The translations under genes and the position numbers were made by a program. DNA of 64,000 nt from contig QPGO01000141.1 of assembly GCA_008632985.1 (NCBI GenBank), forward strand, positions 62,001 to 126,000, in the 5' to 3' direction. This stretch comes from Psammoneis japonica. Lineage: Eukaryota. The notes beneath the pieces are model-generated. The model had not been told where the DNA came from, searched no databases, and saw nothing but the letters and a program-made list of their open reading frames with translations. This document shows positions 11,699-63,207 of the stretch, in pieces (the first letter of the stretch is position 1; every line of letters starts with the position of its first letter).

Positions 11699-12280
11699 CG
11701 TTCTTCTTTTGCCATATCAACTTTTGCCTCTCTATGAGTTACTTCGATAGTTGATGGGTGTCGCCATGTCGCTATCAGGAAAAAGAAAATCGAAAATAAA
11801 TCGAAATGCGGCGTTCTGTCGCTGTCGGTACCGGGCGGTATGTATACGACGATATCTATCTACGTCTATTGGTTCCTCCTCTTTTAGGTGGAACTCTCTA
11901 GATCGAAGTCTGAAACCGAAAGATTTTGGATTGCCGCCCTCGCTACTATCAGAAAATAGAGCCATGACGATTGCCTGCACCAATCATTTTGCTGCATTTT
12001 GCGCCGGGCGTTCGAATTAATTATGACACATGACGGTCATTTCGGTGCGCACTTTTGCGCGACCCACGCGACATGACTAACATGCGTTAGTGCGTGGTGC
12101 TGGTTGTTTTGCTTCTGACCGTTCTGTCTTCTGTGAGGTTTCATGAGGCTGTCTGTGCATGTTGATGTTGTCCAGTTGTGCATGTTGATGTTGTCTGAGG
12201 CAAGCTGCGTTGGATTAAGTGAGTGTGGAAATGTGCGAAATTTGCGCATTGTTGCAGCTTCTTTGCCAAACAGTCAGTCC

Positions 12281-12856
12281 TCATTTGTGGCCACACTCAA
12301 TCCGCGGCGGCTTGAGTGAAAGTCCATGTGCATGCATTTTGCACATTGATGCAGTTGTCTTTGCCAAATGGTCATTTGCAATTTGCTCATTCCATTCTTT
12401 CTGGCCACACTTCTTCTGAAGGGACTTTGCTTGCTCCTTCTCCTGCTCCGCCATCTCCTCCTCGGTGAAAAATCTCCCCGACCGCTGTGGAATCGCCGCT
12501 GCACATGCTGCCTTTAGCTCCTCCATGGTTGAATCATCCTTGGGCGTGACCGTTGTTTCCACATGATGGCTGTCCGCTGTCGTGTTGTCTTGCACAAGCA
12601 CAGAAGTGACACCAAAATTTCCCGAAGCAAGGTCAAACGCCGCTCTTGCTTCTTCCAAGGTGATCTCCTCTTCGTCTTCCTCATTCATCAATGACTGAAG
12701 AAGTTCCGCATGTGTCTGCACCTTTTTCTTGTCCTCACCAGTTTTCTTTGGCTCGTCTGCCTTCTTTGTTTGTTGTTGCAAATCCATGTTTTCTCCATTG
12801 CTGCGTTTTCTGTGACGGTTGCGTTCGCGTTTCTTGGTTTGTTGGTTAAAATCCAT
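12281..12856 (-). CDS. Hypothetical charged protein downstream of RepHel
   Basis: 191-aa ORF with K/E-rich, protein-like composition; no recognised domain. Confidence 0.35.
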   Translation of the reverse strand: MDFNQQTKKRERNRHRKRSNGENMDLQQQTKKADEPKKTGEDKKKVQTHAELLQSLMNEEDEEEITLEEARAAFDLASGNFGVTSVLVQDNTTADSHHVETTVTPKDDSTMEELKAACAAAIPQRSGRFFTEEEMAEQEKEQAKSLQKKCGQKEWNEQIANDHLAKTTASMCKMHAHGLSLKPPRIECGHK

Positions 12857-12921
12857 TCGACGTTGTGTGATGTGTGTGCAGATTTCTGCGCAATGTGCTG
12901 ATCTGATCGAAATGTTTTGTT

Positions 12922-15900
12922 TTACGAAATTTCCGCATTTTTACGGTTGGGGTCGCTGAACAGTTGTGCAGTGGTTGAGCATCCTAATCCAATGTTTGCG
13001 CACTGCATTGACATTTCTGCGCACTGTTGCTGAGAAAAATGCGTGGCGCTTCTCTCCTTCATGAGTCTTGTCAAGGCTTTGTAGCCTTCTGGGACCTTGC
13101 ATTTTCGCAGGTCCTTGCTTGGTGGCTGTTGCATGAACAGCCCTTCTCTGGTCTTTACTCTGGAGAGCACAACATGCACCCAATTCTGAGCGCAGCTCCA
13201 AGAGTGTGCAAACAACTGCAGGACTCCACTCCCTTGCAGTTTGTGCCCTGCAGTGGCATTGTTGATGACAAACGGCAGCTGGGTTGCCTTCAGTTGGAAA
13301 GTGTGCCTTTGTTCATCGCCTTCTTCTAAAATTGGGCTGGGCTTGGCGATGCAAGCCCTGAAAGCATTTGTTTTTGGCTCAACTAAAAACTTCGCGGGGT
13401 CGATGCTTTTGTTGCAGTGTTCCAATGCAACGTGGTCTACCTGGCTGGCAAGCAAAGCAGGAATGCCAATGTTGTTGTCTAAAGTTGCCAGTCTTGGTTC
13501 CTGTCCTGGTTTGAGAACGACCTCATCAACAGTGGCTTGCGTTCCGTTTGCTTGACCGTTTGCTGCATTTTCGTTGAAAGGTGTCATGACTCTGCATCTT
13601 CTGTAAATTCGTAAGACTGGATCCATTCTTCCTGATTGCATGACAACGTCTCCTTCACCACAGTTGTTCCAGAAGCTGTTGCAAACCGGAAATGGTTGGC
13701 AGAGTCTCGTGCCATTCTGCACCTGCAAGTCATCACTGAAAATCAACATTGAGTCAAGGACGTCTCCATCTCTTCCATGCAGTGTTTCCACTCTTTTTTC
13801 GAACAGGCCAGTGTCAATTGCATCTCTGTCCTTATTTGCACATGCAGCATGGCGGAGGTCACTGGGCAGATCATCTTCGTTCTGAACTGCTCGTTCGTTG
13901 ATGCACTCTACATCGTCAACTGCAATCTCACCAGTGCGGAATCTCTTGAGCAGTTTTCCCCATGATGGATCGTCTTTAAACCTGTGTGCACCACGAAGTT
14001 CTATGTGGCAGTTGATCCACTCGTGAAACTCGGGACGTGCATCTTTGCATGGTGGTTTCACTCCTTTTCCGACTGGTTCTAGTTGCCTGAGGTCACCTGC
14101 AAAAACAATGTTCACACCACCGCACGGCTTGCTTGATTCGCTCTTCAATGCTGTTAAATTCTCATGGAGTTTTTCTAGTTCTCTCTTGCTTGCAAAAGAA
14201 ATCTCGTCTGCCACCAAAAGTCTCGTGTCTGACCATGCTTCAGTTTGCTCTTCGGTCATTTGCTTTCTTCTCATGAGGCATGCAACTCGGTGGATTGTGC
14301 CCCCTTTGAGAATGGTCGCAGCCACTCCGGTCAGTGCAGTCACTCTGATTGTGCTTGTTGTGAACGGCTGCTCAACAAGCGAGCAATGCTCTCTTCCGCA
14401 TTCCACGACGAGGTCTGTTGTGGTTGATTTGCCACTTCCACCTGCACCATGTAAAAAGCACACAAGTTGCAACATTCTGTGTCTTTGCACTTCCACGAGT
14501 TTCTTCTATCGGTGAAGGTTTGTTGCGAATTCGTGTCTGCTGTTTCTCCCATTAAGTCCATTGCATGACGTCTCATCTTGAAGAGCGTCTTGGCAGCAAG
14601 TGAGCACAAAGGTTCCTGCTAGAATTTCAAAGGCACGCTGCTGTTGCCCATCCAGTCTTGCTTTCCCAGCCCAGTCTACGACACTTGCTGCAGATCCGTT
14701 TGCTTGACGTGCATCGACGTGTTCTTCCAAACCTGTCATGTCCTCAAATGACCTTCTTGTTCTTTGCGTTCTAGTCAGTGTCACTCGAACAATGTTGTCT
14801 CTTGACAGTGGTCTGCTGTGGATGTGTTGTTGCACTCCTTCATTCTGGTCTTCCTCGTCGGTGTCATCGCCGCCCTCTAGATTCTCAAAAAGTTGTTGTT
14901 CGTTGACCTGGCTTTCCTCGTTTGGTGGGTCAGTGTGCATGTCTGCCAAGCATTTGCAACCACCCATGTGTGAACCTTTCTGTCTTGCACGTTTGCCGCT
15001 CAAATGCGCAGGAACAACTGCTTGGTCGCTCAACCCAATGTCATCGTCTTCTGGCTGCTCTGCCATTTCTTCCAAGAGTGCATCCAGCAGTTGACCCTGA
15101 ACGGCGCCTGAAAGACCTTCTTCCTCGTCACTTTTGCAACAGTCAAACGCAACGTCAGCAGGTCTAAATTGCTCCGTCTTTCTTTGCAGATCATCAGATG
15201 CACTTTTGAGATGAAGGCAGTTGGACTTAGCATCCTGCAGGTTCTGCAAGAAGTTCAAGTTTTCCTCTGCAATGACACCGGCTGCTGCAGAGAGTTGGAA
15301 TTCACACAGGCATGCATGGGTTGTTGGTTTGAGTTCCGTCATTGTTCTGTGAGGCGCAAACAAGGCCAATGCCAACTTGCAGTGCAATTCTTTGTCCAGT
15401 GTTGTTGGTTGCTGCGGATCTGTGAGGCAACCACCAAACTTGGCTGCATCAGGAAAATCACACTGAAGTGCTTTTAACAATCGCGGTTGCTGTCGCTGTC
15501 TGACACCTTGAAGAAACTTGTTCTTCGTTGAATTGTGAGACGGGTGCCTGTGCGCTCTGTTGTCAAACATCATCATGCTGTGTTCGTTTTTCCTTGTGTT
15601 GCGAAGAACTTCGCATTCGCTAAAAAACGCAAACGGACTGAGATTCTCCAGTGCTGTTGGACGACATGGGCAGTGCAAGGCCTGGCATTGGAAGAACGGT
15701 GCATCGCCAAAATGGGCTACAGTCGCAGACACTTCGTCTCTTTCTAGTGTGCTGACAATGTCTTTCAAGGGGCACCATGCGGTCAAATGAGATTTGATGA
15801 AACGGCTTCCGTTCCTTGTTGTGCAAGATGCAAGTGGTGGTCCAATGACGTCCGTCTTGTCATGCGAGCAAGCACCCCACATGAGATGCCTGATTGCTTC

Positions 15901-18652
15901 CGATGCATCAGATGCGTGTTTCCGTAATTCCGTTGCTGTCCTGTTTGCAGTTCGAAGCACTTCGTCGTACGATGCAGTGTCATCTTTCTGGGTGTCTTTT
16001 AGGATGCACTCAATCGTGCATTGAGCAGACGGTCCAGGCATCAACAAAGCAATGTTTGTGTTGCATGTCAGTTTTGATCTGCTTGTTGCAGGGCACGACA
16101 CGTTTTGAAAAGCATCGCACTTTCTCTCTTCGGAACAACTTCCTTCACACACCGACACGTGAAAGTTCCATCCCAGCTGAACCACTTTATCTGAGTGTCA
16201 TCTGCGTTCCTCACTGGGTCATTTGGACATGAAGCAGCTGGTTGCCTGTGACGGCAGTCACCTGGTTTGAGCTCCTCTCGTTTCCTTTTCTTGACTGCGT
16301 GTCCAGTTCCTCGTGTGGGGTTTTTTTACGCATTTTACGCAACTCTGCGCATTTGGGAAAACACGACTTCGTGACGTGCATGTGATGGTTGTAAGCTGCG
16401 TCCGGCATGCATGCCTCTGTTGTCCCTTGCGGACCACTTCGCTGGCATTGCACACACATTGCTTTTAGTCGCTTTGCATGGTTGTCTGGGTGGCGAGTCA
16501 GGCCAGGCACACGGTGCCGTGACTGCAAAAAGCTTTCTACAAACTCGACGTTTGTCCAGCACTTGGTGCAGTGACGACAATGAGCAAACATTCCGTTCTT
16601 CGACTGCTGGCCGTCTTCATGCCTCAGGTTTCTCAGCTGTTGGTTGTCTGCCACTTTTGGAGAGGTGCGACACATTTTTGGCACTGCACAGTCATGATCG
16701 AATGCTTCACGCAACGCGCCAGTGCTGAAGTCCTCGCTGCAGATTAATTCCGTGCTGCAGATCTTCTGAACTGTGTTGGCAAGGTGCTCAGCACCTTTGC
16801 GTCGGATCTGTCTCATTGGCGAATGCAGCTTCTCTCTTGCATTGTTGATCAATGCGAGCCAGATCTGCATGTGTCCGTGTGCTGTCAGACGTCCCTGCTC
16901 CTCAACTGTGGCTAAAAATGCGGCTGGCCTGCCAATGCAGAAGTTAAAGTTTTCTCTTGGTTGGTCAGTGCTCAGATCCCAACCCACTGCCTCTTCTGTT
17001 GCAATGTCAAACAAGCACTCGAATGCAAAGGCTGTTAGACCGGGAAACTTTAGACGCAGTTCATTACATTGCTTGGCCCTGCCAGCAAGAATTTCGTCCG
17101 TCAGTTGTGTCACGTCTTCGTTTGGGTCCAGGATGACACCCGAGTGCAGTTGCACAAGAAATGAATTTGCATCGTCCGGACTGACGGTTAAGAAAATGCC
17201 ACCCTGACCAAAATGATGCTGATGAGTTTCGGCGTTTCTCCTCATTTTCTTTGCTGCTTCGTTGCTGTGTGGCAGAGACGCAGATGCAACGTTGAGTGAA
17301 GGCAAAAAGTGGTGCCCGAGTCCACAATCTCTTCTCTCGCCCAAGTTGCGATCACAAACAGCTCTGTCCACATCGTCCACTGTCAGTTCGTTTGCAAACT
17401 GTGCAGCCTGATTGTTGTCCCTGACTTTCCACCCTGCGCTCTGCAGCATCCTTTGCTTCATTGTCAAGTTGCAGCACATTAACACGAAGAGCTGCTCGTG
17501 GAAGTGAGGCTGGGAAATCCGCGCCAAGTGGTTGGCATGGTGTGCAAGGTTGGTGCCATCTGTGAGACTTCCATCTTTCTTCATTCTCGTCTCATTGATT
17601 CCTCCTCTGCCAAAAGGAAACTGCAGCAGACACGCGTTGATGAAGTTGTTGCCTTTGAAATCACTCGCAGATTCTTCAGACAACTGTGCTTGTGCCTCTA
17701 AATCAAATCCGTTGGCAGCAGCTTCGTGTGCAAGATCTTTGAAGCAGCCCAGGTTGCGCTGACCACCTGTCGCAGGAGACATGGTTCCATCAGGAAAGTG
17801 AACATGAAATGACTCTGAGGTCTCAACATTCGCATTTTCTCCTTCTTCTTTGCTGGTGCTGTCGACAAGTGCGGGATTCCGCAGATTGTGCCTGGCTTCG
17901 TCTAGATTTGTCTGTTGGTGCACCCACTCTTGGTCATGGCACAACAGCCATTCCATCGCCCTTGGCATGCAGTGCATCCTAATTCTGTTCTTTGAACGCG
18001 CAAGTTGTCTTTGCTCCGGAGTCATCTTTCCAGTCATCAGCACAATCACATTCTGATGCAAATTCAGCACGTCGAAGTGCACAACAGTTCTTACGATGCT
18101 TTGCATCTTGACTTTGTAGCACGTCAGACTTCCCTGAAGCTTCTTCTGTTTGCCGCCAAGGCAACTGAAGCAGCACCCGCATGTTTTCACTGGTGTGAGC
18201 ATTGCCAATTCTACTTCGGTTAGAGACAACAGTTCATGCGGCGGGGCACCGAAACAGCAGTTGTTCGCTGTCGCGTGCATTGGCACAACGGCTCTTCCCA
18301 GGCTTCTTCGGCATTTGCTGCAGCAAGTGAATCCGTCGACGCATCGTCTGTCTTCCTGCACTGCGTGTTGGGCGCGGGGAGAAAGTGGCAGGTCTTTGAT
18401 CCAATCAGCATCTTCATGCTCTACAGTGCAGCAGGACTTGAGACGATCAGATGCGCTGTTCCAGTCTGAAGGGGTGAGCAAGTTTCTTGCTGATTCCAGT
18501 GTTTCAAGCGGCAAGCAGCAAACTTCTCCAGGTTTCAGCAGAACGTCACAGACTGAACATGCGTGTGGTCTAAATTCTCCATCTCCATGTAGACAAAGCA
18601 TCTCAAACTTTCTGTTGATTGCACTGCAAACACGGGAGTTGGCCTCGTCCAT
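12922..18652 (-). pseudogene. Helitron Rep/PIF1-helicase (RepHel), split into three ORFs by frameshifts at about 16270 and 14500
   Basis: HUH Rep: FPFGRGG, IFLTVSPDD, VEEQGRLTAHGHMQIW, HHMH...SC, CNTNI...QCTIECILK (YxxxY eroded to CxxxC). PIF1: GAGGSGKS, LLVADEISF, GGVNIVFAGDLRQLEPV, HRFKDDP, ANGT, QLPF..NNATAGHKLQG, HVVLSRVKT. Confidence 0.92.
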
Positions 18653-18738
18653 TTTAATTTAAGCTGATGCTTCAACTCAACAAATTTCAAGAAGTTGCTC
18701 AGTAAAAACAGTTGTTTTTTCAGTGCGATCACCGTGAA

Positions 18739-19380
18739 GCTGCGATCGGTGCTGTCCAATCACCACAGCGATGTGTGTTTTCTCACCACCTGTGGCACTG
18801 CGACTGGTGTCGTCCAGTCACCACAGTGGTTCTGTCCAGTTGATCAACGAACCGCGTCGGTGCCACCCGTTCACCGTGGTGCTGTGTCGTCTTCTCACAA
18901 CCTGTGCAATCAGGTCGATGTGAGCACTGCGACTGGTGCTGTCCAGTCACCACAGCCGAGTCAATTGGTTGCTTGACGAACTGCATCGGTGCCACCCGAT
19001 CACCACAGTGTTGTGTCGTGTTCTCACAACCTGTGTGATCAGGTCTCTGTGAGAGCTGCGACTGGTGTCGTCCAGTCACCGCAGCTGAGCTTGTGCATCA
19101 TCTCACAACCCACGTTACGAGGTGCAGCGCTGTGTTGTTTGCTCACAACCTGTGCAATCAGGTCACTGTGAGAGCTGCGACTGGTGTCGTCCAGTCACCG
19201 CAGCCAAGTGAATTGGTTGCTTGACGAACTGCATCGGTGCCATCCGATCACCGCAGCGTTGTGTCGTGTTCTCACAACCTGTGCGATCAGGTCTCTGTGA
19301 GAGCTGCGACTGGTGTCGTCCAGTCACCGCAGCTGAGCTTGTGCGTCATCTCACAACCTGCGTTGCCAGGTCACTGTGAG
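18739..19380. repeat. Array of same-architecture hairpins upstream of RepHel
   Basis: GCTGCG-ACTGG-tgtcgt-CCAGT-cac-CGCAGC, CTCACA-ACCTG-tgcaat-CAGGT-cac-TGTGAG and CTGC-ATCGG-tgccay-CCGAT-cac units recur in ~120-130 bp modules. Confidence 0.85.
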
Positions 19381-19573
19381 AACTGAGAACTGCGATCGAT
19401 GTGGCCCAACCACCGCAGTTGGATGCTTTTCGTTTCCCTTTGTGCAAAGGTTCTGTCACAAAAAAGTGAGACGAAAGTGTGCCTCTTTCACCTCGATGGA
19501 AGAGTGATGTGTGCGTTCCTCCCACGTCCTTCTTTGCACCAGACGCACGATGTCCCACCCAGTTTCGTCGACG

Positions 19574-19685
19574 TTGAACATCCCATGGGACAAGATTTGG
19601 ATCTTGTTCAAGTTGTTTTGACCATCTGCTCTGAACATTCCATGGGGTAAGATTCGGATCTTGTTCAAGTTGTTTCGGCAATCTT
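19574..19685. repeat. ~57-bp tandem duplication with a small hairpin (AAGAT-tcgg/ttgg-ATCTT)
   Basis: CCATGGG..AAGATTYGGATCTTGTTCAAGTTGTTT occurs twice. Confidence 0.75.
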
Positions 19686-20048
19686 GGTGGTGGGCACAGC
19701 TTTGCGCAAATTCCATGGAATCACGCTTTGACGAGTGGCGGGGCAGTTGAGTCAGTCGTGTGGCAATGACAACGCGATTGACGTCATTCGTGTTTCCAAA
19801 GTGCGCGCGAATCCTCCAAATGGGTGATGGGCCCACCTCAGCTAACTGCCGGCACAGCAGTGACAGCGATGGCGTCGACCATTTGGCGACTAGATTTCAT
19901 GCGCGATGGCCGCGCGGCAGCAACGGCTGAAAGCACATGAAGCACGGACGGAATTGCACGTGATTTTGTGCATTTTCAGTGAGCTCAGTGCGACTTTGCG
20001 TGCTCCAATCCTTGCACCTGTTTTGTTCAAATTGAGTCCACACACCAC

Positions 20049-21092
20049 TTGCAAGTGCTGACACCTGGAAGGTCACCTTGTTGCAGTTCGACGTGTTTGG
20101 ATCTAGTTGCTGACGTTGCCAGTTCTCCTTGGCATGATGTGCGCAGCTCTGCTGGGTCTTTCTTGGCACTTCTGAACGATCGCACTTTTTGTTCCCACAA
20201 TTTCTCTCCGACTGATTCGATGGCATGCAAAAGAAACACAATGACCTCCCCGGCTGCGAAAGCCAAAGTCGCCGAAACCAAACAGAAGAAGGCAAAGACG
20301 AAGTTTTCTGATGCTCTGTTGAAGAAACTAAGTCCGCCCCGCAAGACCAACGGCTTGACCGACGACGACCTTAAACCGGAAGACTGCCTTGCCAAGCACG
20401 GGTTCAAGCTTTCCAAATCCGCCGGTTCTGACGATGGCAGCCATTCCGACAAGGACGCCCTCCTGCGCTGCGCCACCGTCACTGTTGGCCGCAAGAAAGG
20501 CGTCGTTTTTTGTCTCCAAGCCAAGAATCCCCTTTCAACCAATGTTTGGTCAGAGAAGGTTCTGTTTGACAACCTTCGCAGCAGGACTCCGTGGGCGGTT
20601 CAAGTCGGATTCCACCCTTGCGCTGGCAGGTGGGTTCACGAAGGCGAGTTGCAGACAAACGCCAAGAACTGCGCCGTGCGTCTCTTCTTCATCTTCCTCG
20701 AAGAAGTCCCAACCGATGCTGAAGTGCACGGCCTCGGGAAGTGCATTGCAAAGCAGCTCAACGATGACCCTGAGAACAACGCCGAGGTCTTCGTTGAAGA
20801 CGACTTCTTCTGGATGAAGGATGCTGTTTGGTCCGAAGTGATCAGCAACAAGGCGGCGCTCACCAAGCTTCAGAAGGAAGGTGGTCAGTTTCACATCGGT
20901 TGGTGCGCCCAAAACAAGAACTTGCTTCACAGTCACTTCTACGAGGGGTCGTTGCCTGTGGAACTCTGTTGTCTCATTGGAGCTCCAGTGGAAGAAGCTG
21001 GAGAAGAGGCCGACGATGATGTCGAGCTCAACTGCGAAGTTGACCTGAATGTCGATGACAACTTGGTGCTTCAGGACAGCAACGAAGACTGA
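20049..21092 (+). CDS. Hypothetical cargo protein (likely start about 20220-20241)
   Basis: 347-aa ORF with a basic N-terminus, globular middle and acidic tail; almost Tyr-free. Confidence 0.5.
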   Translation: MQVLTPGRSPCCSSTCLDLVADVASSPWHDVRSSAGSFLALLNDRTFCSHNFSPTDSMACKRNTMTSPAAKAKVAETKQKKAKTKFSDALLKKLSPPRKTNGLTDDDLKPEDCLAKHGFKLSKSAGSDDGSHSDKDALLRCATVTVGRKKGVVFCLQAKNPLSTNVWSEKVLFDNLRSRTPWAVQVGFHPCAGRWVHEGELQTNAKNCAVRLFFIFLEEVPTDAEVHGLGKCIAKQLNDDPENNAEVFVEDDFFWMKDAVWSEVISNKAALTKLQKEGGQFHIGWCAQNKNLLHSHFYEGSLPVELCCLIGAPVEEAGEEADDDVELNCEVDLNVDDNLVLQDSNED

Positions 21093-21180
21093 GTTGTTTT
21101 TTTTTTTTGCCGGTGTGGTGTAAATTTGCAAATGTTCAGTGAACTGAGTGTCGATTGCAACTCAGCTTTCCTCTGTCTCT

Positions 21181-22224
21181 TCAAGTGTGCACCATCTCCG
21201 ACAACAACTTGTCGTTACCGCGAAGCAATGGCGAATTGAGCAGAGTAACTAGCGTGTGACGTCCAGTGCAGTGACAGCAAAAAAACAGTTCAGTTGAGTT
21301 CTTAAGTGAAATTGGCTGTTTCGCGACGGGCAAATGCTTCCGTTCCAAGTGTGTCGGAGTGGGACATCGCATGTGCTGGCTGGTTGACTGAGAAGTCTCC
21401 TCTTTCTTGGTGCACTTGTGGAAGACGAGATGTTTCACGTCTCCGCTGTGCCACAAAAAGTCGCCATCATGGCAATCCGCCATGAAGGACTCGCACATCC
21501 ACTCTCCCGCGTGCGACGCGAACAGTGGATCTAGCGCCACCACCACGGTCCCAGCACGACACAACTTCGAAAGCATTGCCTCTGCCTTCTGCTGTGTGTT
21601 CTTGTCGTCGACCATGCGGGAGTTGCAGTTGTTGAAGAACACCTTGAGTCCTTTCTTTTTCCACAAAGGAGCCAGCCTCTCGTCCAAGAATGACTTGTTG
21701 ATCAACTCTGACCCGCCGTTTCAGCGAAGGCCAGCACGATGAGCCCAACGTACAGCCTCTTGGTGATGATCGTGGTCGGCCTCGATGCTCACCATGGTGC
21801 AACGGCGACGAAGTAACTTGAGCCCAATGCTGGGTCCGGCAACTCCCCCGCCCATGTCGACAGATGCATCGCAGGTGTGATTCATGCCAAGAAGGCGTTC
21901 GTTCAAAAACACTTTGCTGCTCAAAGCGAAGCCAACTTCGCCGCTGTGTGAAGATCCGCTTCTGTCTCCGGAGACACGCCTGCTCTGGAACGCGGAGTCC
22001 GGAGCCGTTTGAAGACAAAACTCCCCAACACTTCTGCAACGATGGTTCATTGCACCCAACCTTGTGGCAACATCAACCTTGCTTGCAGCGGGTTCGACCA
22101 GACGTCGCGTTTCCAAACCAAACTGTGATGTGCGCAGAATGCGTAAAATTGCCGTCGCGCCCTCTGTGCGCGCGAAATTTTCAAACGCGGCGTGCCACCT
22201 CTGCCTGCACATGGAGCGACGCAT
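21181..22224 (-). pseudogene. DOT1-like SAM-dependent methyltransferase, single frame interrupted by a stop at 21721-21723
   Basis: SGEV...DASVDMGGGVAG (cf. YGE...DxFxDLGSGxG), VSIEAD, KVFFNN...LCRAGTVVVALDPL (cf. VIFVNN...LKxGTRIVS); ORFs 21721-22224 and 21181-21705 are in frame. Confidence 0.55.
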
Positions 22225-22461
22225 GAAGTCATTTTAAACAGACATGCAAACGCGTTGAAACAACAAGACGCCTTTAGGCAATAAAATTTGTTTTGAATCT
22301 CGGCCTGCTTCTCATCGTCACCGTACTTGCACATCGGTGTAATTCAAACGCACAAGCTGGCACGGCATGCAACGCACTTCTACGTGAGAACTCGCACCGA
22401 GATTGCCGTGGGATGATCCTCCCTCCGCGGAGACAAAAACAACGCGACAACACTTCCGTCA

Positions 22462-23931: not shown

Positions 23932-24153
23932 CAGCACAAAATGGCTTGCTAAATTTGCGTAAATTTGCTGACTTTCTGTGCTCAGGCGACTGTGCAGGCA
24001 CCTGCCAATTCACCAGATTTGCGTAAATTTGCCGACTTTCTGTTCTTCCTCGTTCCCATTTTTCGAACCACAACTGGGGCTACGCCTTTCCAACTGATGC
24101 TGCAGTTTCACTGAAAAACACCAACACACTGTGCCACTAATTTACAGAGCACA

Positions 24154-27525: not shown

Positions 27526-27530
27526 TCAGT

Positions 27531-27560: not shown

Positions 27561-27561
<1 letters not shown>

Positions 27562-51284: not shown

Positions 51285-51459
51285 TGCAAACTTTACAGCA
51301 TTTTCACAACCAAAGCAAAAAACGGACATGTCACTCATCCCAGTCATCTGTCTGTCCTTTTTCAGCACCAATGCAAACTTTGCAGCATTTTCACAACCAA
51401 AGCAAAAAATGGACATGTCGCTCATCCCAGTCATCTGTCTGTCCTTTTTCAGCACCAAT
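51285..51459. repeat. ~87-bp tandem duplication
   Basis: TGCAAACTTTRCAGCATTTTCACAACC...TTTTTCAGCACCAAT occurs twice. Confidence 0.9.
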
Positions 51460-54400: not shown

Positions 54401-57400
54401 AATGGCGAGATCAGCTTTTCATCAACTGAAATGGCGAAGCACTCACACACACACACATTCTGCAGCACGCACCGTCAAGAAGAAACAGCATGTTCTCCTG
54501 CTTGTCTCCCTCTTCCATGACCAAGCACACATTTCATCCAACACTGTGGGCCTCTCAAGATCCAACTGGACACTGAAAGCTCCGCAATCTGACTCTGCAA
54601 AGCAACAGCTGCTGTCAAAGGACTTCAGGCATGCAGAGCATTGACATGGAAATGTGCCACTGTAAGTGCTTGCAGTCCCGGATGTCCATGCTGAAAAATT
54701 GCAGGCATGAGTGGAGCAACATTGCACACAACAACAATCTGTTGAGGCCACACATCACAGCACACTCATCATGGCACCTTTCAGAGGCAGCTTGGAGTTG
54801 CCTGCCAAGTTTTAAGGCCCCAAGTGCCGCCAGTGGTTTGTGGCATTCAAGCATCCAAGGGTGGGTGAGGAGCCCTGCCGCGCAAGCCTCTGCATGCCCA
54901 TTTCTCCCATTGCAATGCCTGGAGAAGTCAGCACACTGCCAAGATCTCATGAAACAGCATGGATGATGTCATGGCTTGGGTGGCAAAGATGACATGGTTG
55001 CAAAATGGCAAGAAAGGGTCAATGAAGACCAGACACCTGAACACATGAACCTGACTTGCCAAAAAAATGCTGGCAAGGCATGCAAATTTTGTCAAAACAA
55101 GTCTAAAAGCCAGTCAATTGCAGCACACTTGCTGCACTGGCTTCTTTGGACAATGACAAGACTGTCTTGAAAAAATGCCAACATTGTGAGCAGCCCTGAG
55201 GCTCCATCACATTGATTTGTTCCCATGATGTGCACTTTTTGGAAATCATGATGCACGACAAATGACTCGCCAATGTCATGCACCAACAAAGGCCCCAAGA
55301 AGGACATCAAGCACACCTCAAGTCCATCTTGACATCAACAACAGTCACGCCTTGGGGCAAAGCATTGGGCTCCCAAACGGGCATGCTTTGTTGGTGGTGC
55401 AATGCCATGAAAAAGTTGCCAACATTGCAGAAACAACAACCAACCAAATGAGATGATCAACCCACCCACAAAGCTGTGACAAAGCTCAAACAACATCTTT
55501 GGCAAGCATTCAAATGTCACAAAATGAGAAAACAGAGAACAAGCTTGCCACGGCAACATTGTCAACTGCTCAGATCTCAGATGCAATGGTCGGTTGTTGA
55601 CAGGCGACAGCACGCAGAATGTGCATCAACCACAATGGCACACTCTCTTGTTTTTCTGCAGCCCTTTGGCAATCAAAAACTTTGTCCATCATCAGCTTCA
55701 AATGCATGGTTGCAAGCACTGGATCTTTCTGCTTGCGACGACAACAACACATTCAATTTTTTTGTGTTTTTACTTTTGAAAATGGCGCCAAAAGTTTGGA
55801 CCACATTTCATGTGAAAATGGGCATTTTTGCATGTGCAGGCCCACCCAAGTCTGGAACAAATGTCAAGACAGGGTGCACACACATGGTCAAGTGCACAGC
55901 TCGCATGGGGCAGAGGAAGGCAGCACAGCCAGTGAGTTGGTTCAAGTTGCAGCCATCACCCTTGCACACACCAAGCAACTGGGCCATTGTGTGCCTGCAC
56001 ATGCCCCCAAATTGTCTTGTGCAACAACATCTTTGTTTTTGGCAGAACACTGCCTGGTGCCAGCACAATGGAGCCACCATGTGGGCACACTGCCTGTCCC
56101 TCTCTCCTTCCTCTTTGCAATGTTGTGCTGTGCCACAGACAGAACGAAGAGGTGTCAGGAATTTCAGACAAATCCAATTGACCATTCAAGATGGCGCCAT
56201 TGTCATTGATGTTTGGTGCATTTGCTGCTGCATGTGGTTCAAGCAGAAAACTGCAAAAACATGGCTGGTGACAACGATGCCCTGAACTCAGCCACAAGCT
56301 CCTGCATCCACAGTCAATGTGGGCACATGTCTGCACTTGTCACTTGCCACACAACACAATGTCTGGTGCACTCATCACATGCAATTTGATCAATGACATC
56401 GCTGGTGTGGCATGCCATTGTCTCAGAATTGAATGCTGTGCCACAAAAGCACGCGGACAATGGAAACTTGCTCTTCTGTCACATGTCACATTTGTCTGCC
56501 CGTCAACTGTTTGTCTTGTGAAATCTGCACGAACATTCCAACACTTTGACAGTCTGTGCATGCTTCATTTGACACCTGTTTGTTCCTTTGACAACCCTTT
56601 GTTCTGTGCGCAGTGTGTCACACACAAACAAGTGCCTCACTTGCTGCAAGCAACTCATCAATGACATCTTTAGCATTTGGAGCATTGCTGGCCCTGCCAC
56701 CGATGCCACCTGCTGGGAAGCCTTTTTCTTGAGAAGATTCAATGCCTTTGAGACACAAGCTGGGTTGCTGACCCCACTCCGTGACCTTCATCATGGACCT
56801 TGCTGTGTCAATGAAAGGCCCAAGAAAAGTTGCACAACCCTCTCTGCAAAAAAGCCATGAACCTGCCTCTGCACAACAACATCCCAGCACTGCACTCTGA
56901 CCATTCAATTGGAGTGCTGTTTGACCTTGCGCCAGTGGGCATGCTCTTCCAATTTTAAAAACTTGGCTCTGACCAACCCCACTCATGCTGCAAAAGCAAA
57001 GATGAAACTGCCGCCAATCACCGGCTAAAGCGCAGTGTGCATTTTTGAGTTTTTGGGCTTCACATTGTGCCAAATGCACAAAAATGCCTCTTTGTGTAGA
57101 AACGCTCCAGGATTCTTCGCAGTGTCACACCAAAACATTGCAACCTGATCGTGATGAGCCGTCTCTGTTGCATGCATTCTGTTCAAGCAAGTGACAGTGC
57201 TTGCTGTGCAGTCGTTCAAATGCATGAGGATCTCAAGAATCTAGTGAAGGGTCTGGCCATGGAAAATTTAGCCAGTCGTCCTTAACTGCTGAACCTTTGC
57301 CTCTAAACATTCTGGAATGTTCCAACAACTTCGCGCGTTCTACCAACAATTGACATGCAAGTTGCACAACTTAGTGCGCTTGAATGGAGCTTTCTTCTCT

Positions 57401-57483
57401 CACAAAACTTCAGCACGAATTTTCGAAGGATCCTCCTTGGGCAAATCTTCGCTCAACAAGAAGATGAAATACAAAATACATTT

Positions 57484-59853
57484 CTAATTATTGTTTACCG
57501 TGAATGCGTACACGGAGCCGGACTCGTCGCCATTGACGCCAGCCAACCATGCACCAACTCCAACAACGCTTCCTTCGGCCGACAATGACACGGAATGTCC
57601 AAAATTATCACCACCAGCCTCGCCATTTAAAGGATCTCCAACTTGCTTCCATTTGTCTACATTACTGTCATGCTGAAAGATTCGAACTTGACCTGCATCG
57701 ACCAAGCCATTGACGTCATGATAAATGCTTCCGACCGCCAAGACGTTTCCATTTCCACTCAACGACACTGACCAACCAAACTTTTCATCGGGCTCTTGTG
57801 TCAAGAGAGTTTTCCCACTGCGACTCCATGTTGACGTCGAGCGGTCGTACGAATGAACGAAAACCCTCTCATTGTTGCCAGGCGCACCCGCGGCCATGAT
57901 CAAACCGCTGTCGTCAAGAGAAACCGACAATCCAAAATTACCACCACCGACTTGTCCATTGATTGGATCGCCCAACAGATTCCATTTTGACGATGCAAAA
58001 TTGTATTCAAATACCGACACTTGACCCGCATCGCTTCTACCCGAGTCATTTCTGAAAGCTCCAACGCCGACAATGGTTCCCAGAGCATTCAAGGAAACGG
58101 AAAAACCAAACCAATCACCAGCAGCTTGGCCAATCAAAGTTTGTCCAAGCTGGTTCCAGGATAAGGAGCCACGGTCGTATTGAAACAATCGAACCGATCC
58201 AGAATCGGAGCCATTTTCCGTGTCATCCAAAAAAGCTCCCACGGCAAGAATGCCTCCCGCGTCCGAGAGCGACACGGAAACACCAAACCAATCAAAAGCA
58301 TCTTGTCCAAGAATATTGCTACCGAGTTGGACCCAACGATCCGATGCCGAGTTGTATTCAAACACACGAACGTGACCGGCGTCCGTTCCGCCACTGTCAT
58401 TCCTTGGAGCTCCAACAGCAAGAACCGTGCCGTCGCCATTTAACGAAACAGATGTTCCAAAATCGTCACCGCGGGCTTGTCCAATCAATTCTTGGCCAAT
58501 TTGCATCCATTGTTGGTTGCTTAGATTGTATCGATTGACAACAACATAGCCGGGGTTGGAACCAGCTCGTACTGCTCCAACTGCCATGATCATTCCGTCG
58601 CGAGACAAGGATACGGAATCGCCAAAAAAATCACTTGCAGCCTTGCCGTGCGAGACTTGACCCATTAAAGTGAATGGACCAGCGGAATAAGGAGTTGGCC
58701 GGTACATTTCCGAACGAATTTCATCTCTACTTAGTGCCACATTGTACAGGCTGACAGAATCCATGAGACCCTTAAAATAACTGTTCCTTTCCTCTTCATC
58801 CTCGTGATAGTGGCTGCCAACGTTGAAGGGTGCCTCATTGACACAGTAGGGTCCATTCTTTGGAGGGGTTTCCTCTCCCGACAATTCTCCATTTACATAG
58901 ATTCTCAATGTATTTCCGTCATAGGTCACGGCGGTGTGCGTCCAAGTCCTGGTAGGAATGGGATTGTTGCTATCGATTCGGAATTTGCTGTTCTTGTTGC
59001 AGCCACCAAAATAGCCGCCGGCCCGAACCTTACCAGTTTCCTGAAGAATGACAAGCCATGTCGCAAATGGTTTCTGAATAATTACCTGAGCAGCGTCGTC
59101 CGTAGCGTGGTATCGTACCCATGCCATCATGGTGTAGGCTTTCATGTTAAGATTGGTAGATTCGGGTACAAGAACATGGTGACTCCGGCCATTCAAGCTG
59201 ACTGCATTCTTGTAAACACCGATGGATTCACGGGGCGGTCCGACAATCCCCCTGCTTCTGCCTTGTTGTTTTCCATTCCATCCCATCTTCCCTGTGTCCT
59301 TGAAAAGTCCATTAAATCCATCAAAGGTATACTCTAAAAGCGGTCCAATGCATGGCTTCAAGCTTGGTAGACTGATCGACGTTGGAAACATCTCTCGGTT
59401 CTTCCCAATAAAAAGAGGGAAGTGTTCAGGCGAGTTGATGGTAAGGCATGCTTCTTGTCCTTGCTTCAAGACGAAATTGAAACCGTCCACATCACCTTTA
59501 TCCAGCTGAAAGTTGAAATCCGTACTGTTCACCGAATCCATTCCTTTTTCGAGGAGCTTGTTGAAATTACTCTTCATCTTGATGACGTAGTCGTCGCTGT
59601 TTGGAACCAACGAACCGTTGACGAAAGTTTCTTGTCTACCAGCAACCGCACGCAGATACCAGGCATTGGAGGAGCACTTGTTCCATAGAAAGATCCCGCG
59701 GTCCTTTTTCTTGTTGTACGGCGGAAGACCACATGCGGATGACGGTGCTTCGTCGGCAGCAACTTGATGGGATCCAATCAAAAGCCCCAATGCAGCATTG
59801 ACAACGAGAAAGAGACGACGACGACGAGAACGGAAGTAAATGGGGGATTTCAT
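57484..59853 (-). CDS. Secreted protein: signal peptide, N-terminal domain, LamG/ConA-like jellyroll and about 7 FG-GAP (beta-propeller) repeats
   Basis: Intact intronless ORF; YTMMAWV...WTHTAVTYDGNTLRIYVNG...YFKGLMDSV.LYN.ALS (LamG); repeated D.FG.SVSLS.DG..LAVGA. Confidence 0.88.
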   Translation of the reverse strand: MKSPIYFRSRRRRLFLVVNAALGLLIGSHQVAADEAPSSACGLPPYNKKKDRGIFLWNKCSSNAWYLRAVAGRQETFVNGSLVPNSDDYVIKMKSNFNKLLEKGMDSVNSTDFNFQLDKGDVDGFNFVLKQGQEACLTINSPEHFPLFIGKNREMFPTSISLPSLKPCIGPLLEYTFDGFNGLFKDTGKMGWNGKQQGRSRGIVGPPRESIGVYKNAVSLNGRSHHVLVPESTNLNMKAYTMMAWVRYHATDDAAQVIIQKPFATWLVILQETGKVRAGGYFGGCNKNSKFRIDSNNPIPTRTWTHTAVTYDGNTLRIYVNGELSGEETPPKNGPYCVNEAPFNVGSHYHEDEEERNSYFKGLMDSVSLYNVALSRDEIRSEMYRPTPYSAGPFTLMGQVSHGKAASDFFGDSVSLSRDGMIMAVGAVRAGSNPGYVVVNRYNLSNQQWMQIGQELIGQARGDDFGTSVSLNGDGTVLAVGAPRNDSGGTDAGHVRVFEYNSASDRWVQLGSNILGQDAFDWFGVSVSLSDAGGILAVGAFLDDTENGSDSGSVRLFQYDRGSLSWNQLGQTLIGQAAGDWFGFSVSLNALGTIVGVGAFRNDSGRSDAGQVSVFEYNFASSKWNLLGDPINGQVGGGNFGLSVSLDDSGLIMAAGAPGNNERVFVHSYDRSTSTWSRSGKTLLTQEPDEKFGWSVSLSGNGNVLAVGSIYHDVNGLVDAGQVRIFQHDSNVDKWKQVGDPLNGEAGGDNFGHSVSLSAEGSVVGVGAWLAGVNGDESGSVYAFTVNNN

Positions 59854-62800
59854 TTTTGTTGTTTTGCTTTTTGGAATCTCGTTCTTGAAAACATTACGCC
59901 GTGTGCGTGTTCGCAATCGGCTTTGACCTGAACCAAGCAGCTCCCCGCACGCGAATCATTTAGACAGCTCCTGCGTTGCATCACACAAATGTGTTGCTTG
60001 GTTCGGTGCAGGGAAAAGACAAGTGACTCGACTTGACATTCCACTTGTTGTTCTTTGTTCGCGGATTGGAAGCATCCCTGACCAGGCATTTCTGAGGATG
60101 GGACAGAATCCTCACCTGTTCAGGGGATGCTGTTTGTTTTTCTCTGTTCTTCCAGAAAGATGCTCATGTGCCAAGGGAATGGCTTTGCACTAAATTTGCT
60201 GCCAGACTCTCCAACGATGGCCTTTCCACACTGGAGAGTTTCTGCCCAGAGACTCTGCAGGCCATGTGCAGCTGCACCACTGTGTGCATGCTGCCTTTGT
60301 GAAAAAAAAAAGGGCTTGAGCTGCAGCCAGACCAGGCCAGCATTTTCTCAACCAAAATGTCCTTGCAACGTTTTTGTGCAAGTCACAGGAAAAGAGCAGC
60401 TGGGGTTGTTTTGAAAAGACTCCTGTTGCCACAGTGAACCAGGAGGCACCTGGTGTCCCTCGAGCTTGGGAACAAGGGGCTTTTTTTTCAAGACTTTGGT
60501 GGGGCAGCTCCTCTGGCACACCCAGCCCAGTGCTGTTTTTGGGTGGAAGAAAGTTGTGCAAGATGGGTGGAAAATGTTGCAGAGCAAAGACCATCTGCCT
60601 TGCTCACCCTGGCTGGCTGCAAGTCAAAGATGCAGGCATCAAACCCAAGTGACAAAAGCACCAGCCAAGTGCACCTGCTGCCTTTTTGCTCAGAGCCCCC
60701 TGTGCTGCCGCAGCCAACAAGCAGCACTGGGCATGAAAGGGTGTTTTTTGAGACTTTGGTGGGGCCAGGCCAGCACTGTTTTTGGGTGGGAGAAAGTTGT
60801 TTTGTGGACCAGGCTGAAAATGTGGGGTGGCAGCCGTCTGTCTTGGCTCAACCCTGCTTCTCCATGGAGCAAGACAAACAAACAACCTGCCAAAAAGAAA
60901 GAGCAGCTTGTTTTCAGCTTGAGCTGCCCACACCACAGGTTGGAAACAAGGGTGCAGGCATCAAACCTGAGCACCAAAAACTTGCATCAAGAAGTGACAG
61001 CTGTCAGGATGCCAGCAGCTGTGGCCAAAGGGGAGTGTGGAAAGGAGCTGCAAAGCCAGGGGGCCTTGTGCTGCTGTCTTTTGTTGTCCAGAGCTTGCAG
61101 GTCACAACTTCTTTTGCAGCCTCCCCATGCCACAAGCAGTGCCCTGAGTGTTCATTGCTGGTGTGGTCTCCCTGGTTTTCAAGCTGGCAGCTTGTGTGTG
61201 TGATGGCAGAGCAGAGCTGCACTTCCTTTCTGTCCAGAGAGAACTTTGCACTGTTGTGACATCATGACAATTGGATGATGTGTGCATCTGGTTGAAAATG
61301 GGCTTGTTGTAATTGCGCGTGGCATCAAGAAGCAGAGATGGTGCAACTGTGGCTTCATCGGGCGGTCGAGCAGTCAGTCCGTTCGTGTGAAAAGTGGTGG
61401 CAGATGCTGAAAAAAAAACACTCAAAGGAAAAATTTGAGAGCAGCAATTTCTGCACGTTTCTACACAAAGCGATGGTTGCACTTCGGCTTGTCCCAGGAC
61501 GCTGTCAAATGCTGCGTTTCCTTCAACCAAGTGTCCTGCATTCTCAATTGGTGTCTGCTTGACTTGCCCATGGAAAGAAACTGCAAGTTTCGAGAACATG
61601 TCAACAAGACATTCCTGTCAGCAAAAAAAAGGTCCTGTTTTTTTGCCCCAAGTTTTTGAATTGGACACTTGGATGGGAAAAAGTGTCGAAAGGTGCAGTT
61701 TCTTTCACTCGGCAGGAAGCTAAGACAGCAGAGAAAGTGTCTGCATGCTTGAATTCATGAGTGTTTTTGTCTTGGAAGTGCCTTTCATGGCCTTTCCAAG
61801 ACACGTGGAGAACGAGGTGACAAATGAGCGATCGCCAAAACAGAATTTCCGTTGAGCGACAAACTTGCAATCACGCGCATGCCGACCCATGTGATTCGCC
61901 AACAAGGCACAATGCTTTTGTCTAACAACGGATTCCTGATTCCCGTGATTTTCAATGAAAATGCGCGCGGAAACGATTTTCACAATTTTTGTCTCGCACC
62001 ACCTTAAAAAATGGGGGACAGTGCGCCGCGTGCACGAAAAATCGAAAAGAAGATGACCAAAACATCGAAAGATCCGCGACATCAAGTGGTTGTGAGAAAG
62101 CCAGCTGACAAGGTTGCAAGAGACAATGAGGTTGAAACAACTCCTGCATTGGAAATGCAAAGAAACAATCATCAACATTTCACACTTGCAATGCAGGCTT
62201 GTGCATGAAATCACAGAAGATTCTTCCGATCCACGGCAACACCCGAACTCTCAACAAAGCCTGCTCCACAGGGCGCCCACGTCACATGTGGGACAACTGC
62301 ATTCCAAGCAAAAGACAAATCAAGTGTTGGTCGATCAAGTGCAGACACGCAACTGCTGGCATGCAACAAGGCACACGGTTGCCACTTGCGGTTGCCACTT
62401 GCGCTGCTGCCTCTTCTTGCTGATGATGCGGGTCCACTGACATCATGATTGCCATTTCCGAGACAAGCCATTGGCATCAACATGCAATGAACAAGTCGTC
62501 TCTGCCCCGCACTGTGCTGCACGTGCACCATCGCTCTTCCGCAAAATGGTGCATGAGTCATCAACCGGCATTCCATCTTTGTGGAGAATGTGGCGCACCA
62601 GTGATCCGCAGCCTTTTGTCTCCACAGCGGATGCAATGGGGTTCTGGTGTCTTACACAGCAACAATGCAGACCACCGGGATGAGATGGATGCAACAAACT
62701 GATGGTCATGGAGGTGACAGTTGGTTTTTTCAATCGCGGAGTGTTGTGGATTTCGGTGCGCGTGCGTGCTGTCCCCCGTTTCTCAAATGTCCAGGTCTCC

Positions 62801-63207
62801 ATTGCCACACCACATGCGCTTCCCACAGGGTTTAGAGAGTCATTGCAGATGCGATTGCCACTCAATTTCCAACATTGACGCCGCCGTGAACGATTTGCTC
62901 ACCATGGTCGAAGTCTTTTTTCTCGTGCAAAAAGCACGAGGATTGTGGGGTGGCGGACGAATGTGCCAAAAATTACATTTTAGTCGAGTCACTCAGCTGC
63001 GCTTGCCGGCCCATGCCCAATCGAAAGCACACGAGGCCACATTTGATGGATCGTCAGGTCAGTCACCCGCCATCTCTCGCATCACGCAATGATGATGAAA
63101 GATCCATTTCAGCCGCACATGCCTATCCATTGCTGAATTGCTGCAGCTAATAATAATAGCACTCATACTTGATCAATAAGACTCTCTCAACACTTCTCAT
63201 CTCAAAA

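Follow-up and report, generated by a model that had tools for sequence, protein, structure and literature searches.

In mutation-accumulation lines of the chlorarachniophyte Bigelowiella natans, 231 of the 302 new nuclear mutations were located in two integrated viral regions, and 230 of those 231 were A-to-G or T-to-C changes, all at TpA and occurring roughly 1000-fold above background (Mettrop et al., bioRxiv 10.64898/2026.01.13.699255). According to that preprint, the integrated DNA derives from nucleocytoplasmic large DNA viruses (NCLDV) and virophages, the coding sequences that are poor in TpA and rich in CpA and TpG are enriched in transposase and reverse-transcriptase domains, and an ADAT2-like adenine deaminase is proposed as the enzyme. 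Here we describe a 64,000-nucleotide stretch of Psammoneis japonica DNA (assembly GCA_008632985.1, contig QPGO01000141.1, positions 62,001 to 126,000), hereafter called the window, in which five blocks derived from transposable elements (TEs), including a Helitron-family element and a Plavaka-like DNA transposon, are nearly free of the dinucleotide TA. The composition of these blocks very probably records a real hypermutation of TpA to TpG or CpA that was confined to TEs.

The window shares with B. natans the restriction to A-to-G and T-to-C transitions at TpA on either strand, seen here through the fates of tyrosine codons, a mass balance of dinucleotides and the 47 of 155 protein changes that a single reversal undoes. 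Also in common are the confinement to foreign or silenced DNA, here with five TE blocks affected and six host stretches spared, and the long-term signature of low TpA with high CpA and TpG. In B. natans, a rhizarian alga with integrated viral DNA, the mutation-accumulation lines caught the process while it was under way, whereas the window presents the end state only and all TE classes present in it are affected. Depletion was near saturation here (observed-to-expected ratio, o/e, of 0.08) against 0.45 for the NCLDV region there, and a rule for the pyrimidine at position +1 was resolved here, while the words 'context', 'flanking' and 'trinucleotide' were not found in a search of the text on B. 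natans. The first-pass annotation of the window, made from its letters alone, had known of no description of such a system. That statement has to be amended in view of the 2026 preprint on TpA-only hypermutation in B. natans. For fungi, our literature search turned up nothing on TEs that had lost TpA, only papers on repeat-induced point mutation (RIP) and the B. natans preprint, most subscription journals being outside its coverage.

RIP, known from Neurospora and other Ascomycota, likewise consists of regional, saturating, TE-inactivating transitions with a dinucleotide preference and sharp borders. However, RIP changes C to T at CpA and so makes TpA and stop codons, whereas TpA is destroyed here and no stops are created; and it needs duplicated sequence, whereas a duplicated gene pair is spared here and low-copy relics are affected. 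The outcome of RIP, an excess of TpA with AT enrichment, was not observed, as the TpA o/e was 0.08 and the G+C content was 0.49 in TE blocks versus 0.465 in host DNA. Decay of 5-methylcytosine (5mC), by which CpG becomes TpG or CpA, yields the same products TG and CA and co-occurs in most blocks (CpG o/e down to 0.08), but it cannot remove TpA, and the loss of TA is complete even where CpG is undiminished. The hyperediting by APOBEC3 and ADAR in animals acts on single-stranded cDNA or double-stranded RNA, on one strand and in retroelements only, and gives C-to-T changes or A-to-G changes with G at +1; what the window would share with it is that a deaminase drives the hypermutation of selfish elements and that the genome keeps the record. 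A further relative is the ADAT2/ADAT3-type mRNA editing of Fusarium and Neurospora, an ADAR-independent A-to-I conversion in RNA hairpin loops with a strong preference for U/T at -1 and, in Fusarium, with A (39%), G (37%), U (17%) or C (7%) at +1 (Liu et al. 2016, PMC4817773). The conversion of A to I or G and the -1 U/T preference agree with the window, where only TpA is lost, whereas the editing concerns RNA and the change seen here is a heritable one that affects both strands of the genomic DNA and extends to its non-coding parts.

TA-poor blocks and spared host DNA

Scanning the window with sliding windows (o/e values per 1 kb and TA counts per 300 bp) gave a landscape of two states. Host stretches showed TA o/e values of 0.41-0.73 with CpG near 1, versus 0.00-0.21 for TA, 1.4-2.3 for TG and CA and a variable 0.08-1.1 for CpG in the five TA-poor blocks; some 1-kb windows, such as 35001-36000 and 46001-47000, contained no TA at all. 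The borders of the blocks, placed by TA sites in the sensitive context defined below, were sharp and lay at 12022-27407, 29144-31790, 34150-44098, 45060-57097 and 59895-62974, leaving six host stretches spared. TA counts per 300 bp were 0-6 inside the first block and 7-24 in its flanks. When dinucleotides were pooled, the TE blocks (43,325 bp) contained 219 TA (o/e 0.08), 1389 CG (0.53), 4562 TG (1.65) and 4441 CA (1.68), and the host sequence (20,205 bp) contained 781 TA (0.54), 1140 CG (1.04), 1518 TG (1.23) and 1527 CA (1.20). The difference in TA between TE and host DNA had a chi-square of 1012 (p = 4e-222), calculated with block ends a little different from those of the pooled counts.

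The pooled counts also allowed a mass balance. The excess of TG plus CA in the TE blocks was 57.1/kb, and the missing TA (33.6/kb) and missing CG (24.3/kb) together made 57.9/kb, indicating that two processes with the same products account for the composition of the TE blocks. The decay of CpG suggests that most of these blocks were cytosine-methylated. The description given in the first-pass annotation, of transposon-derived DNA almost free of TA and rich in TG and CA beside host genes of normal composition, was thus borne out, and the block limits it had proposed matched the borders found here. Its single block of 34.15-57.3 kb was TA-poor as claimed but not continuous, as an island of normal TA at about 44.1-45.06 kb split it in two.

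Tyrosine loss and the direction of change

The first block (12022..27407) consists of a high-copy Helitron-family unit at about 11.9-26.0 kb, followed by a relic at 26.0-27.4 kb that is older, CpG-poor and present in about one to two copies. On the minus strand of the unit lies a Helitron Rep/helicase gene (12284..18658), which extends over four stop-to-stop open reading frames (ORFs) at 16214-18658, 14509-16197, 12925-14505 and 12284-12940, with the Pfam domains Helitron_like_N, DUF6570 and PIF1 on consecutive ORFs. Both hallmarks of Helitrons, a Rep HUH domain of the two-Tyr type and a PIF1-like helicase, were found, together with 27 full-length relatives. While Tyr accounted for 2.8-4.6% of residues in 25 of these 27, the window ORFs contained only 5 Tyr in 2124 amino acids (aa), along with 96 Cys and 94 His.

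For a comparison by position, the ORFs were aligned with 23 relatives, leaving out the Tyr-poor P0005 and P0026 and the short or distant P0023 and P0027, and columns with Tyr in at least 60% of the relatives were examined. At these 30 columns the window read Tyr 4 times, Cys 18, His 4, Phe 3 and Lys once. Conserved columns of other residues were kept to between 43 and 100% depending on the class, for example W in 13/13, H in 19/19, Q in 20/20 and G in 47/50, and the least-kept classes were M (3/7), I (12/25), V (21/36) and K (13/22). The low retention of some of these classes is partly an effect of TA as well, because one TG/CA-to-TA step undoes most of the corresponding changes, namely V to A (6/7), I to T (4/4), L to P (3/3), T to A (4/4) and I to V (3/5). 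Among all 155 departures from the Helitron consensus, 47 were reversed by one such step and 9 by a CpG reversal. The motifs that the first-pass annotation had singled out agreed with this pattern. The QYxFKY of the Rep domain of relatives reads QCTIEC in the window, both tyrosines of the motif being Cys, and the WVYVMLSRV of the PIF1 domain reads WVHVVLSRV.

The same was observed in an unrelated element. The Plavaka-like transposase ORF of the third block (38197..40641, minus strand; 815 codons, interrupted by a single TGA at 39442-39444) contained 2 Tyr in 815 codons, when compared with a median of 2.9% Tyr in 150 relatives, and was rich in Cys (5.3%) and His (4.4%). Against 45 relatives picked for a length of at least 550 aa and at least 1.8% Tyr, the 12 Tyr columns read Tyr 2, Cys 5, His 4 and Arg 1. 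P0029, which is the closest relative (60% identity), has 16 Tyr, and none of them was kept, the window having Cys at 9, His at 3, Ser at 3 and Ile at 1 of them, so that its YRAHPDY..WYDFAY appears here as CRAHPDC..WCDFAC, as the first-pass annotation had claimed. The sole in-frame stop aligns with an Arg of P0029 and would fit a CGA-to-TGA decay of CpG rather than the TpA process. As for the identity of this element, the ORF matched Pfam PF18759 with E = 0.0037 and 17.0 bits, under the cut-off of 26.3, and for the whole read-through ORF Pfam returned nothing at E <= 0.001. With phmmer, 1090 relatives at E <= 0.001 clearly placed it in a large transposase-like family, and the label 'Plavaka-like' for the element at 38.2-40.6 kb is provisional.

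A third protein had been put forward, a SET-like ORF inside the Helitron-family unit (24157..24795, minus strand), possibly a captured gene fragment. It does read PGEEFLCRC, with Cys where that annotation placed the conserved Tyr. The claim is, however, weakly checkable, as the Pfam SET match (E = 0.0075, 17.1 bits) is below the curated cut-off of 22.4 and no SET-protein match was found among PDB sequences.

Since conserved Tyr is replaced by Cys or His in two unrelated TE families, TAY can be regarded as ancestral and TGY or CAY as derived, and on these protein alignments the direction from TA to TG/CA is considered established. Tyr-poor TE proteins also occur among the relatives in public sets of predicted proteins. 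Less than 1.2% Tyr was found in 4 of 48 Helitron relatives, the Tyr-poor proteins including P0005, P0026, P0191 and P0192 (0 Tyr in 866 aa), and in 3 of 150 Plavaka-like relatives, two of which (P0123 and P0125) have a single Tyr. They are present in JGI and ENA protein sets and may or may not share one source organism. No close paralogue of the Helitron ORF was detected among public proteins, where the best match had 48% identity.

Sequence context of the surviving TA sites

The TA sites still present in the TE blocks belong to a particular context. Writing R for purines and Y for pyrimidines, 121 of 218 survivors were YTAR and 5 of 218 were RTAY, versus 95 and 271 of 781 in host DNA, in full agreement with what the first-pass annotation had noticed by eye. 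We applied a two-strand model with four parameters, in which only the 3' neighbour determines how fast the A on each strand is lost and survival requires that both strands escape, taking the expectation from host 4-mer counts. This model fitted the 16 NTAN counts (X2 of 18.9 with 12 degrees of freedom), whereas uniform survival failed (X2 of 460 with 15 degrees of freedom). The cumulative hits were estimated at 3.07 for TAT, 1.70 for TAC, 0.27 for TAA and 0.23 for TAG, and the survival of T-A-T was about 0.05. Under this rule a TA site would survive only without T-A-Y on either strand, the condition that YTAR fulfils. The survivors would thus fit one single-strand motif, 5'-T-A-Y with TAT > TAC >> TAA ~ TAG, attacked on both strands. 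The 9 Tyr codons that survive in the TE ORFs of the window and in the metagenome locus described below were all TAC, 8 of them after a pyrimidine, as the model predicts.

The densities by block agreed with this picture. Doubly sensitive sites fell from 13.5/kb in host DNA to 0-0.7/kb in TE blocks and singly sensitive sites from 20.5/kb to 0-3.9/kb; the density of YTAR was 4.7/kb in host DNA, 5.7/kb in the Helitron core and 0 in 34150-36000. Counts of TGY and RCA, the products of the two strands, were equal in 7 of the 9 TE blocks counted, with no consistent strand bias. In the Helitron core there were 464 TGY and 332 RCA, but a strong A/T skew makes this strand difference uninterpretable, and in the Helitron-family block at 18.7-26.0 kb the two were unequal with p = 0.025. 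The claim of an A:T-to-G:C process on both strands of TE DNA is therefore supported by the symmetry in 7/9 blocks as well as by the change of Tyr to Cys or His. The affected elements that were identified (Helitron and Plavaka-like) are DNA transposons, indicating that an RNA intermediate is not needed.

The change has a peculiar consequence for reading frames. Conversion of TA to TG or CA turns TAA only into TGA, so that no new stop codon can arise, which explains the 92 stop-free frames of at least 150 codons in the window and the unbroken ORF of 1882 codons in the metagenome locus. With TAA and TAG nearly absent, long stop-free frames abound on either strand of the TE blocks, and gene callers may turn them into spurious Tyr-free 'proteins'.

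A second locus with the same signature

A scan of metagenome contigs with a Helitron alignment as the query gave 17 loci. The TA o/e was 0.35-0.90 in 16 of the 17, and one locus alone, L009, had a value of 0.03, with 13 TA in 7761 bp and 0 RTAY. It has the full Helitron domain set, and its unbroken Helitron ORF (L009:2047-7692, 1882 codons) contains 2 Tyr. Its 31 Tyr columns read Tyr 1, Cys 19, His 6 and Phe 5, whereas residues of other classes were kept elsewhere (F 42/48, L 75/81, T 30/32). L009 is thus an otherwise well-kept element stripped of TA. No close DNA-level relative of it was found among the 17 loci, and a metagenome search with the Tyr-free protein P0192 returned no loci. The density of TA rises in the last 70 bases of L009 (7693-7731), just past the end of the ORF, which may be the border of the element.

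Targeting, copy number and tempo

Copy number was approximated by the summed word depth in sequencing run X1 (Logan contigs). The Helitron-family unit (12.0-26.0 kb) had a depth of about 2000-5400, versus about 52-66 in host bins. TA-poor stretches of low copy number, one at 26.0-27.4 kb with a depth of 69-122 and one at 29.1-30.0 kb with a depth of 61, were nevertheless fully affected; an X1 contig of 3011 bp with a depth of 60.9 spans 29113-30000 with 0 other letters and 1 gap. In contrast, two copies of a host gene with Laminin_G_3 and FG-GAP domains in Pfam, about 25.5 kb apart on the minus strand (copy A, 31791..34149, with its duplicate at 57456-59546 within copy B, 57098..59894), were both spared in spite of 83% identity over 2103 columns, with 69 TA in 2082 bp of copy A and 64 TA in 2091 bp of copy B. 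The differences between them were mainly CpG transitions. The pair is part of a segmental duplication (31901-34407 / 57456-60337) made up of the gene and a TA-poor TE edge, of which the gene parts are TA-normal and the TE parts are not.

Thus duplicated genes were spared and low-copy relics affected, with the caveats that copy number at the time of mutation may have differed and that selection may protect genes. Duplication alone would not account for the targeting, which respects the junctions between TE and host DNA. The homology trigger implied by the first-pass annotation, which had spoken of a repeat-targeted 'reverse-RIP', was accordingly not upheld.

In the block at 18.7-26.0 kb, CpG was at 64/kb (56/kb in host DNA) while T-A-T strand motifs numbered 3, compared to about 159 at host density. 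The youngest block, in which CpG is still intact, is therefore saturated for TA loss, and the change stops sharply at the TE/host junctions. Saturation at intact CpG indicates that the process was fast relative to 5mC decay. Contigs of run X1 also join 12977/12988 to 24965, skipping some 12 kb of the Helitron-family unit, and this suggests that the sample contains internally deleted, non-autonomous derivatives of the family.

Proposed mechanism and points against it

On these results, the TE-derived DNA of the window has undergone a transition hypermutation at the DNA level that converts TpA to TpG or CpA on both strands, and the survivors are explained by a single rule, the change of the A of 5'-T-A-Y-3'. 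The process is self-limiting, as a site is no longer TpA after one hit. TE genes are inactivated by missense changes, including the loss of Tyr in the Rep Y..Y motif, while long frames stay open. The agent may be a DNA-acting deaminase that turns adenine into hypoxanthine, a base read as G. Sequence duplication alone would not be what brings it to silenced or foreign DNA; chromatin or RNA cues would do so. The process may be of the same kind as the TpA hypermutation of B. natans. No natural enzyme with this activity on DNA is known to us, and the adenine base editors of the laboratory were obtained by evolving TadA, an enzyme of tRNA. Taken as a whole, a TE-confined TpA hypermutation by targeted adenine deamination in DNA at T-A-Y seems to us somewhat probable. 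Of the interpretation offered in the first-pass annotation, the TpA-specific A:T-to-G:C transitions on both strands of TE DNA only were supported and an adenine deaminase stays a candidate, while the repeat trigger was not shown and Pol eta fitted poorly.

Several observations weigh against this account. The direction of change rests on protein comparisons rather than on the DNA of close relatives, and the context model, with its expectation from host 4-mers, assumes that the ancestral TE 4-mers were host-like. Sequence does not separate A-to-G at T-A-Y from T-to-C at R-T-A on the other strand. The +1 preference found here (T > C >> A ~ G) is opposite to the A ~ G > U > C of ADAT-type fungal editing in Fusarium, and it does not match that of ADAR either. 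The three runs that were compared with the window come from one sample and may be the source of the assembly. Among the 40 differences listed, of 480 in all between the window and the run contigs, 24 were in TE DNA, and these comprised 13 of CpG type, 2 single TA/TG differences, 4 rows representing two adjacent TG<->CA pairs and 5 others.

The scarcity of TA/TG differences among these listed rows indicates that most of the TA loss is common to the window copy and the run copies, so that it either preceded amplification or was convergent. Loss before amplification would need mobilisation in trans of an element with a dead Rep. At every site other than RTAY the motif determines which product arises, which makes convergence possible. 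The paralogues within the window are only the gene plus TE-edge duplication and a 134-bp pair (35873-36006 / 43309-43437). In the TE edge of the duplication (34141-34407 homologous to 60064-60337, 74.6% identity over 283 bp), the well-aligned part showed TG in both copies at 20 sites, CA in both at 16 and CA against TG at 1, with no sign of independent resolution. Doubles of TG<->CA were the commonest adjacent differences between paralogues (9 and 4), but 8 of the 9 were in the poorly aligned part, and an ancestral CG yields the same pattern.

Alternative explanations

The alternative that survives best, although we regard it as unlikely, is a chemistry directed at thymine. A lesion on the T of 5'-R-T-A-3', for example an enzymatic modification of T that pairs with G, would produce T to C, and the A-to-G changes would be its mirror image. 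The motif can equally be written R-T-A (A-T-A > G-T-A), the attacked base is not told by sequence, and the symmetric strand counts suit this chemistry too. Deamination of A to I is, however, an established chemistry, whereas we know of no enzyme-driven pathway from T to C. The authors of the B. natans study also prefer adenine deamination (bioRxiv 10.64898/2026.01.13.699255).

Error-prone repair is a weaker candidate. Heterochromatic or methylated TE DNA might draw mismatch repair and a Pol eta-like polymerase that mutates A at WA, a motif that includes TA; A to G is the commonest error of Pol eta, and CpG decay suggests that most of the blocks were cytosine-methylated. Yet the WA hot spots (TA plus AA) with many transversions that mark Pol eta and somatic hypermutation were not seen here. 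AA was undepleted, with an o/e of 1.33 in TE and 1.19 in host DNA, as were CA and GA. The changed Tyr columns were Cys or His in 22/26 cases for the Helitron, 9/10 for the Plavaka-like element and 25/30 for L009, that is, mainly transitions. TA was saturated in a block without CpG loss, so that its loss is not secondary to 5mC deamination, and a strict +1 pyrimidine rule is not known as a feature of Pol eta. The polymerase named among the candidates of the first-pass annotation is thus a poor fit, and the error-prone repair of TE DNA improbable.

Still less probable is a biased correction of T:G mispairs in methylated DNA, in which a T:G-specific glycosylase would repair them to C:G and T:A would slowly become C:G. 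That the TA-poor blocks are mostly CpG-poor too suggests the presence of 5mC and of its repair machinery, but saturation in a high-copy family with intact CpG would need a rate far above that of CpG decay. Moreover, known T:G glycosylases act in the TpG context and not at TpA.

We consider a sequencing or assembly artefact, in which modified bases of TEs were miscalled and TA read as TG or CA, to be very improbable. The runs that contain the window do derive from a single sample. Logan contigs with a word depth of about 52-61 nevertheless reproduced low-copy stretches poor in TA without a single substitution over 887 bp and over 386 bp (and with 5 in 1089 bp in a further comparison with X1), and the same runs differed from the window at 16/1896 host positions, showing that they are not a copy of the consensus. 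A strand-dependent miscall predicts mixed TG and CA at each site and some CG, yet CpG is depleted. L009, an independent and unrelated metagenome contig, has the same signature, which makes an assembly artefact unlikely, and Tyr-poor TE proteins occur in both the JGI and ENA sets.

The last two can be dismissed briefly, each having next to no chance in our view. RNA-level A-to-I editing of TE transcripts by an ADAR- or ADAT-like enzyme, followed by reverse transcription and reintegration, has in its favour the -1 U/T preference, which is common to ADAR and to fungal ADAT-type editing. But the elements that could be identified are DNA transposons, the change is as strong on one strand as on the other and in non-coding parts, in contradiction to editing of one strand, and the +1 preference is opposite. 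A native composition or selection, by which TEs from a TA-avoiding regime were TA-poor from the start, could point to the TA o/e of 0.54 already present in host genes, but Tyr replaced by Cys or His in two unrelated families, including the Rep and PIF1 motifs, is incompatible with a functional selected state, and unrelated TE relics share both the signature and the context rule.

Implications

Going beyond adenine deamination at T-A-Y as such, one may speculate about a dedicated defence system, in which a T-A-Y-specific DNA adenine deaminase would be guided to TE or foreign chromatin, would erase TpA on both strands within a few generations and would kill TE genes through the loss of their tyrosine codons. 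It would be an A:T-directed counterpart of RIP and, with kinship to the B. natans process in ancestry or mechanism, an ancient mutational immunity of eukaryotes and a natural DNA adenine editor. This extended proposal is tentative and, at present, rather doubtful.

If the process is enzymatic and targeted, the window would represent a second, very distant lineage with TpA-specific A:T-to-G:C hypermutation after the chlorarachniophyte report. In the window it would be directed at transposons, has gone to saturation and has a resolved T-A-Y motif. Mutational defence by adenine editing would then be a wider eukaryotic phenomenon, and a DNA adenine deaminase would exist in nature. The process would also account for predicted proteins that are 'tyrosine-free' and for the many spurious long ORFs of TE-rich assemblies. 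Tools based on RIP indices would miss the signature of TpA loss or score it as 'no RIP'; other affected genomes can be screened for by Tyr-less TE ORFs, a TA o/e of <0.1 and survivors that are YTAR only.

Other features of the window

The second block (29144..31790) is an unclassified TE relic with TA o/e of 0.02-0.21 and CpG o/e of 0.08-0.40, single-copy where covered by contigs. In the third block (34150..44098), the Plavaka-like transposon is preceded by an unclassified part (34150-36000) with 1 TA. The fourth block (45060..57097; TA o/e 0.00-0.15, CpG 0.15-0.50) is unclassified TE-derived DNA with short tandem repeats, and none of its wholly internal ORFs of at least 150 aa matched Pfam at E <= 0.05; the majority of TE ORFs in the window were without a Pfam match. 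The fifth block (59895..62974) has a TA o/e of 0.02-0.08, and its start is paralogous to the start of the third.

The spared DNA begins with a host stretch (1..12021) with TA o/e of 0.41-0.73 and CpG o/e of 0.76-1.28, which carries MCM6 (about 4.5-7.2 kb, minus strand; Pfam MCM domains and MCM6 matches in PDB) and a GTPase ORF (9917-11716, minus strand, 600 codons). The latter matches Pfam MMR_HSR1 and, weakly, the Type II intron maturase domain (Intron_maturas2, E = 2.2e-5), and both domains were also found in its two closest relatives. In their affinities, the Helitron, Plavaka-like and MCM6 sequences look fungal or opisthokont: the PDB matches of MCM6 were from several opisthokonts, and the nearest MCM6 protein cluster is most often Zoopagomycota, among just 12 members whose phylum is known. 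The best relative of a host gene had 54% identity. An island at 27408..29143 contains an exon for indole-3-glycerol-phosphate synthase (Pfam IGPS) with normal TA. The island at 44099..45059, TA- and CpG-normal (o/e 0.38 and 1.25 in 44001-45000), gave no match in a Pfam scan. At the end of the window, 62975..64000 (plus strand) holds part of the spared host DNA with an Alg9-like mannosyltransferase gene (Pfam Glyco_transf_22; TA o/e 0.62).

In the host gene region 10001-11896, contigs of runs X1 and X2 differed from the window at 16/1896 positions, and contigs of the same runs at 28.2-30.0 kb differed at 0-1 positions. Heterozygosity, a second haplotype or a different isolate might lie behind this contrast. 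A 94-bp match with 87% identity connects the host-side stretch at 9456-9546 with the TA-poor relic at 26948-27040. Tandem repeats in the TE blocks were found at 18752-19371 (about 243 nt, 3 copies), 22620-22814 (96-99 nt, 2 copies) and 51285-51458 (87 nt, 2 copies, 97% identical). Two arrays of units of about 30 bp, at 48050-48221 and 49210-49441 and thus about 1.1 kb apart, match each other in direct and inverted orientation and may be the subterminal repeats of a DNA transposon.

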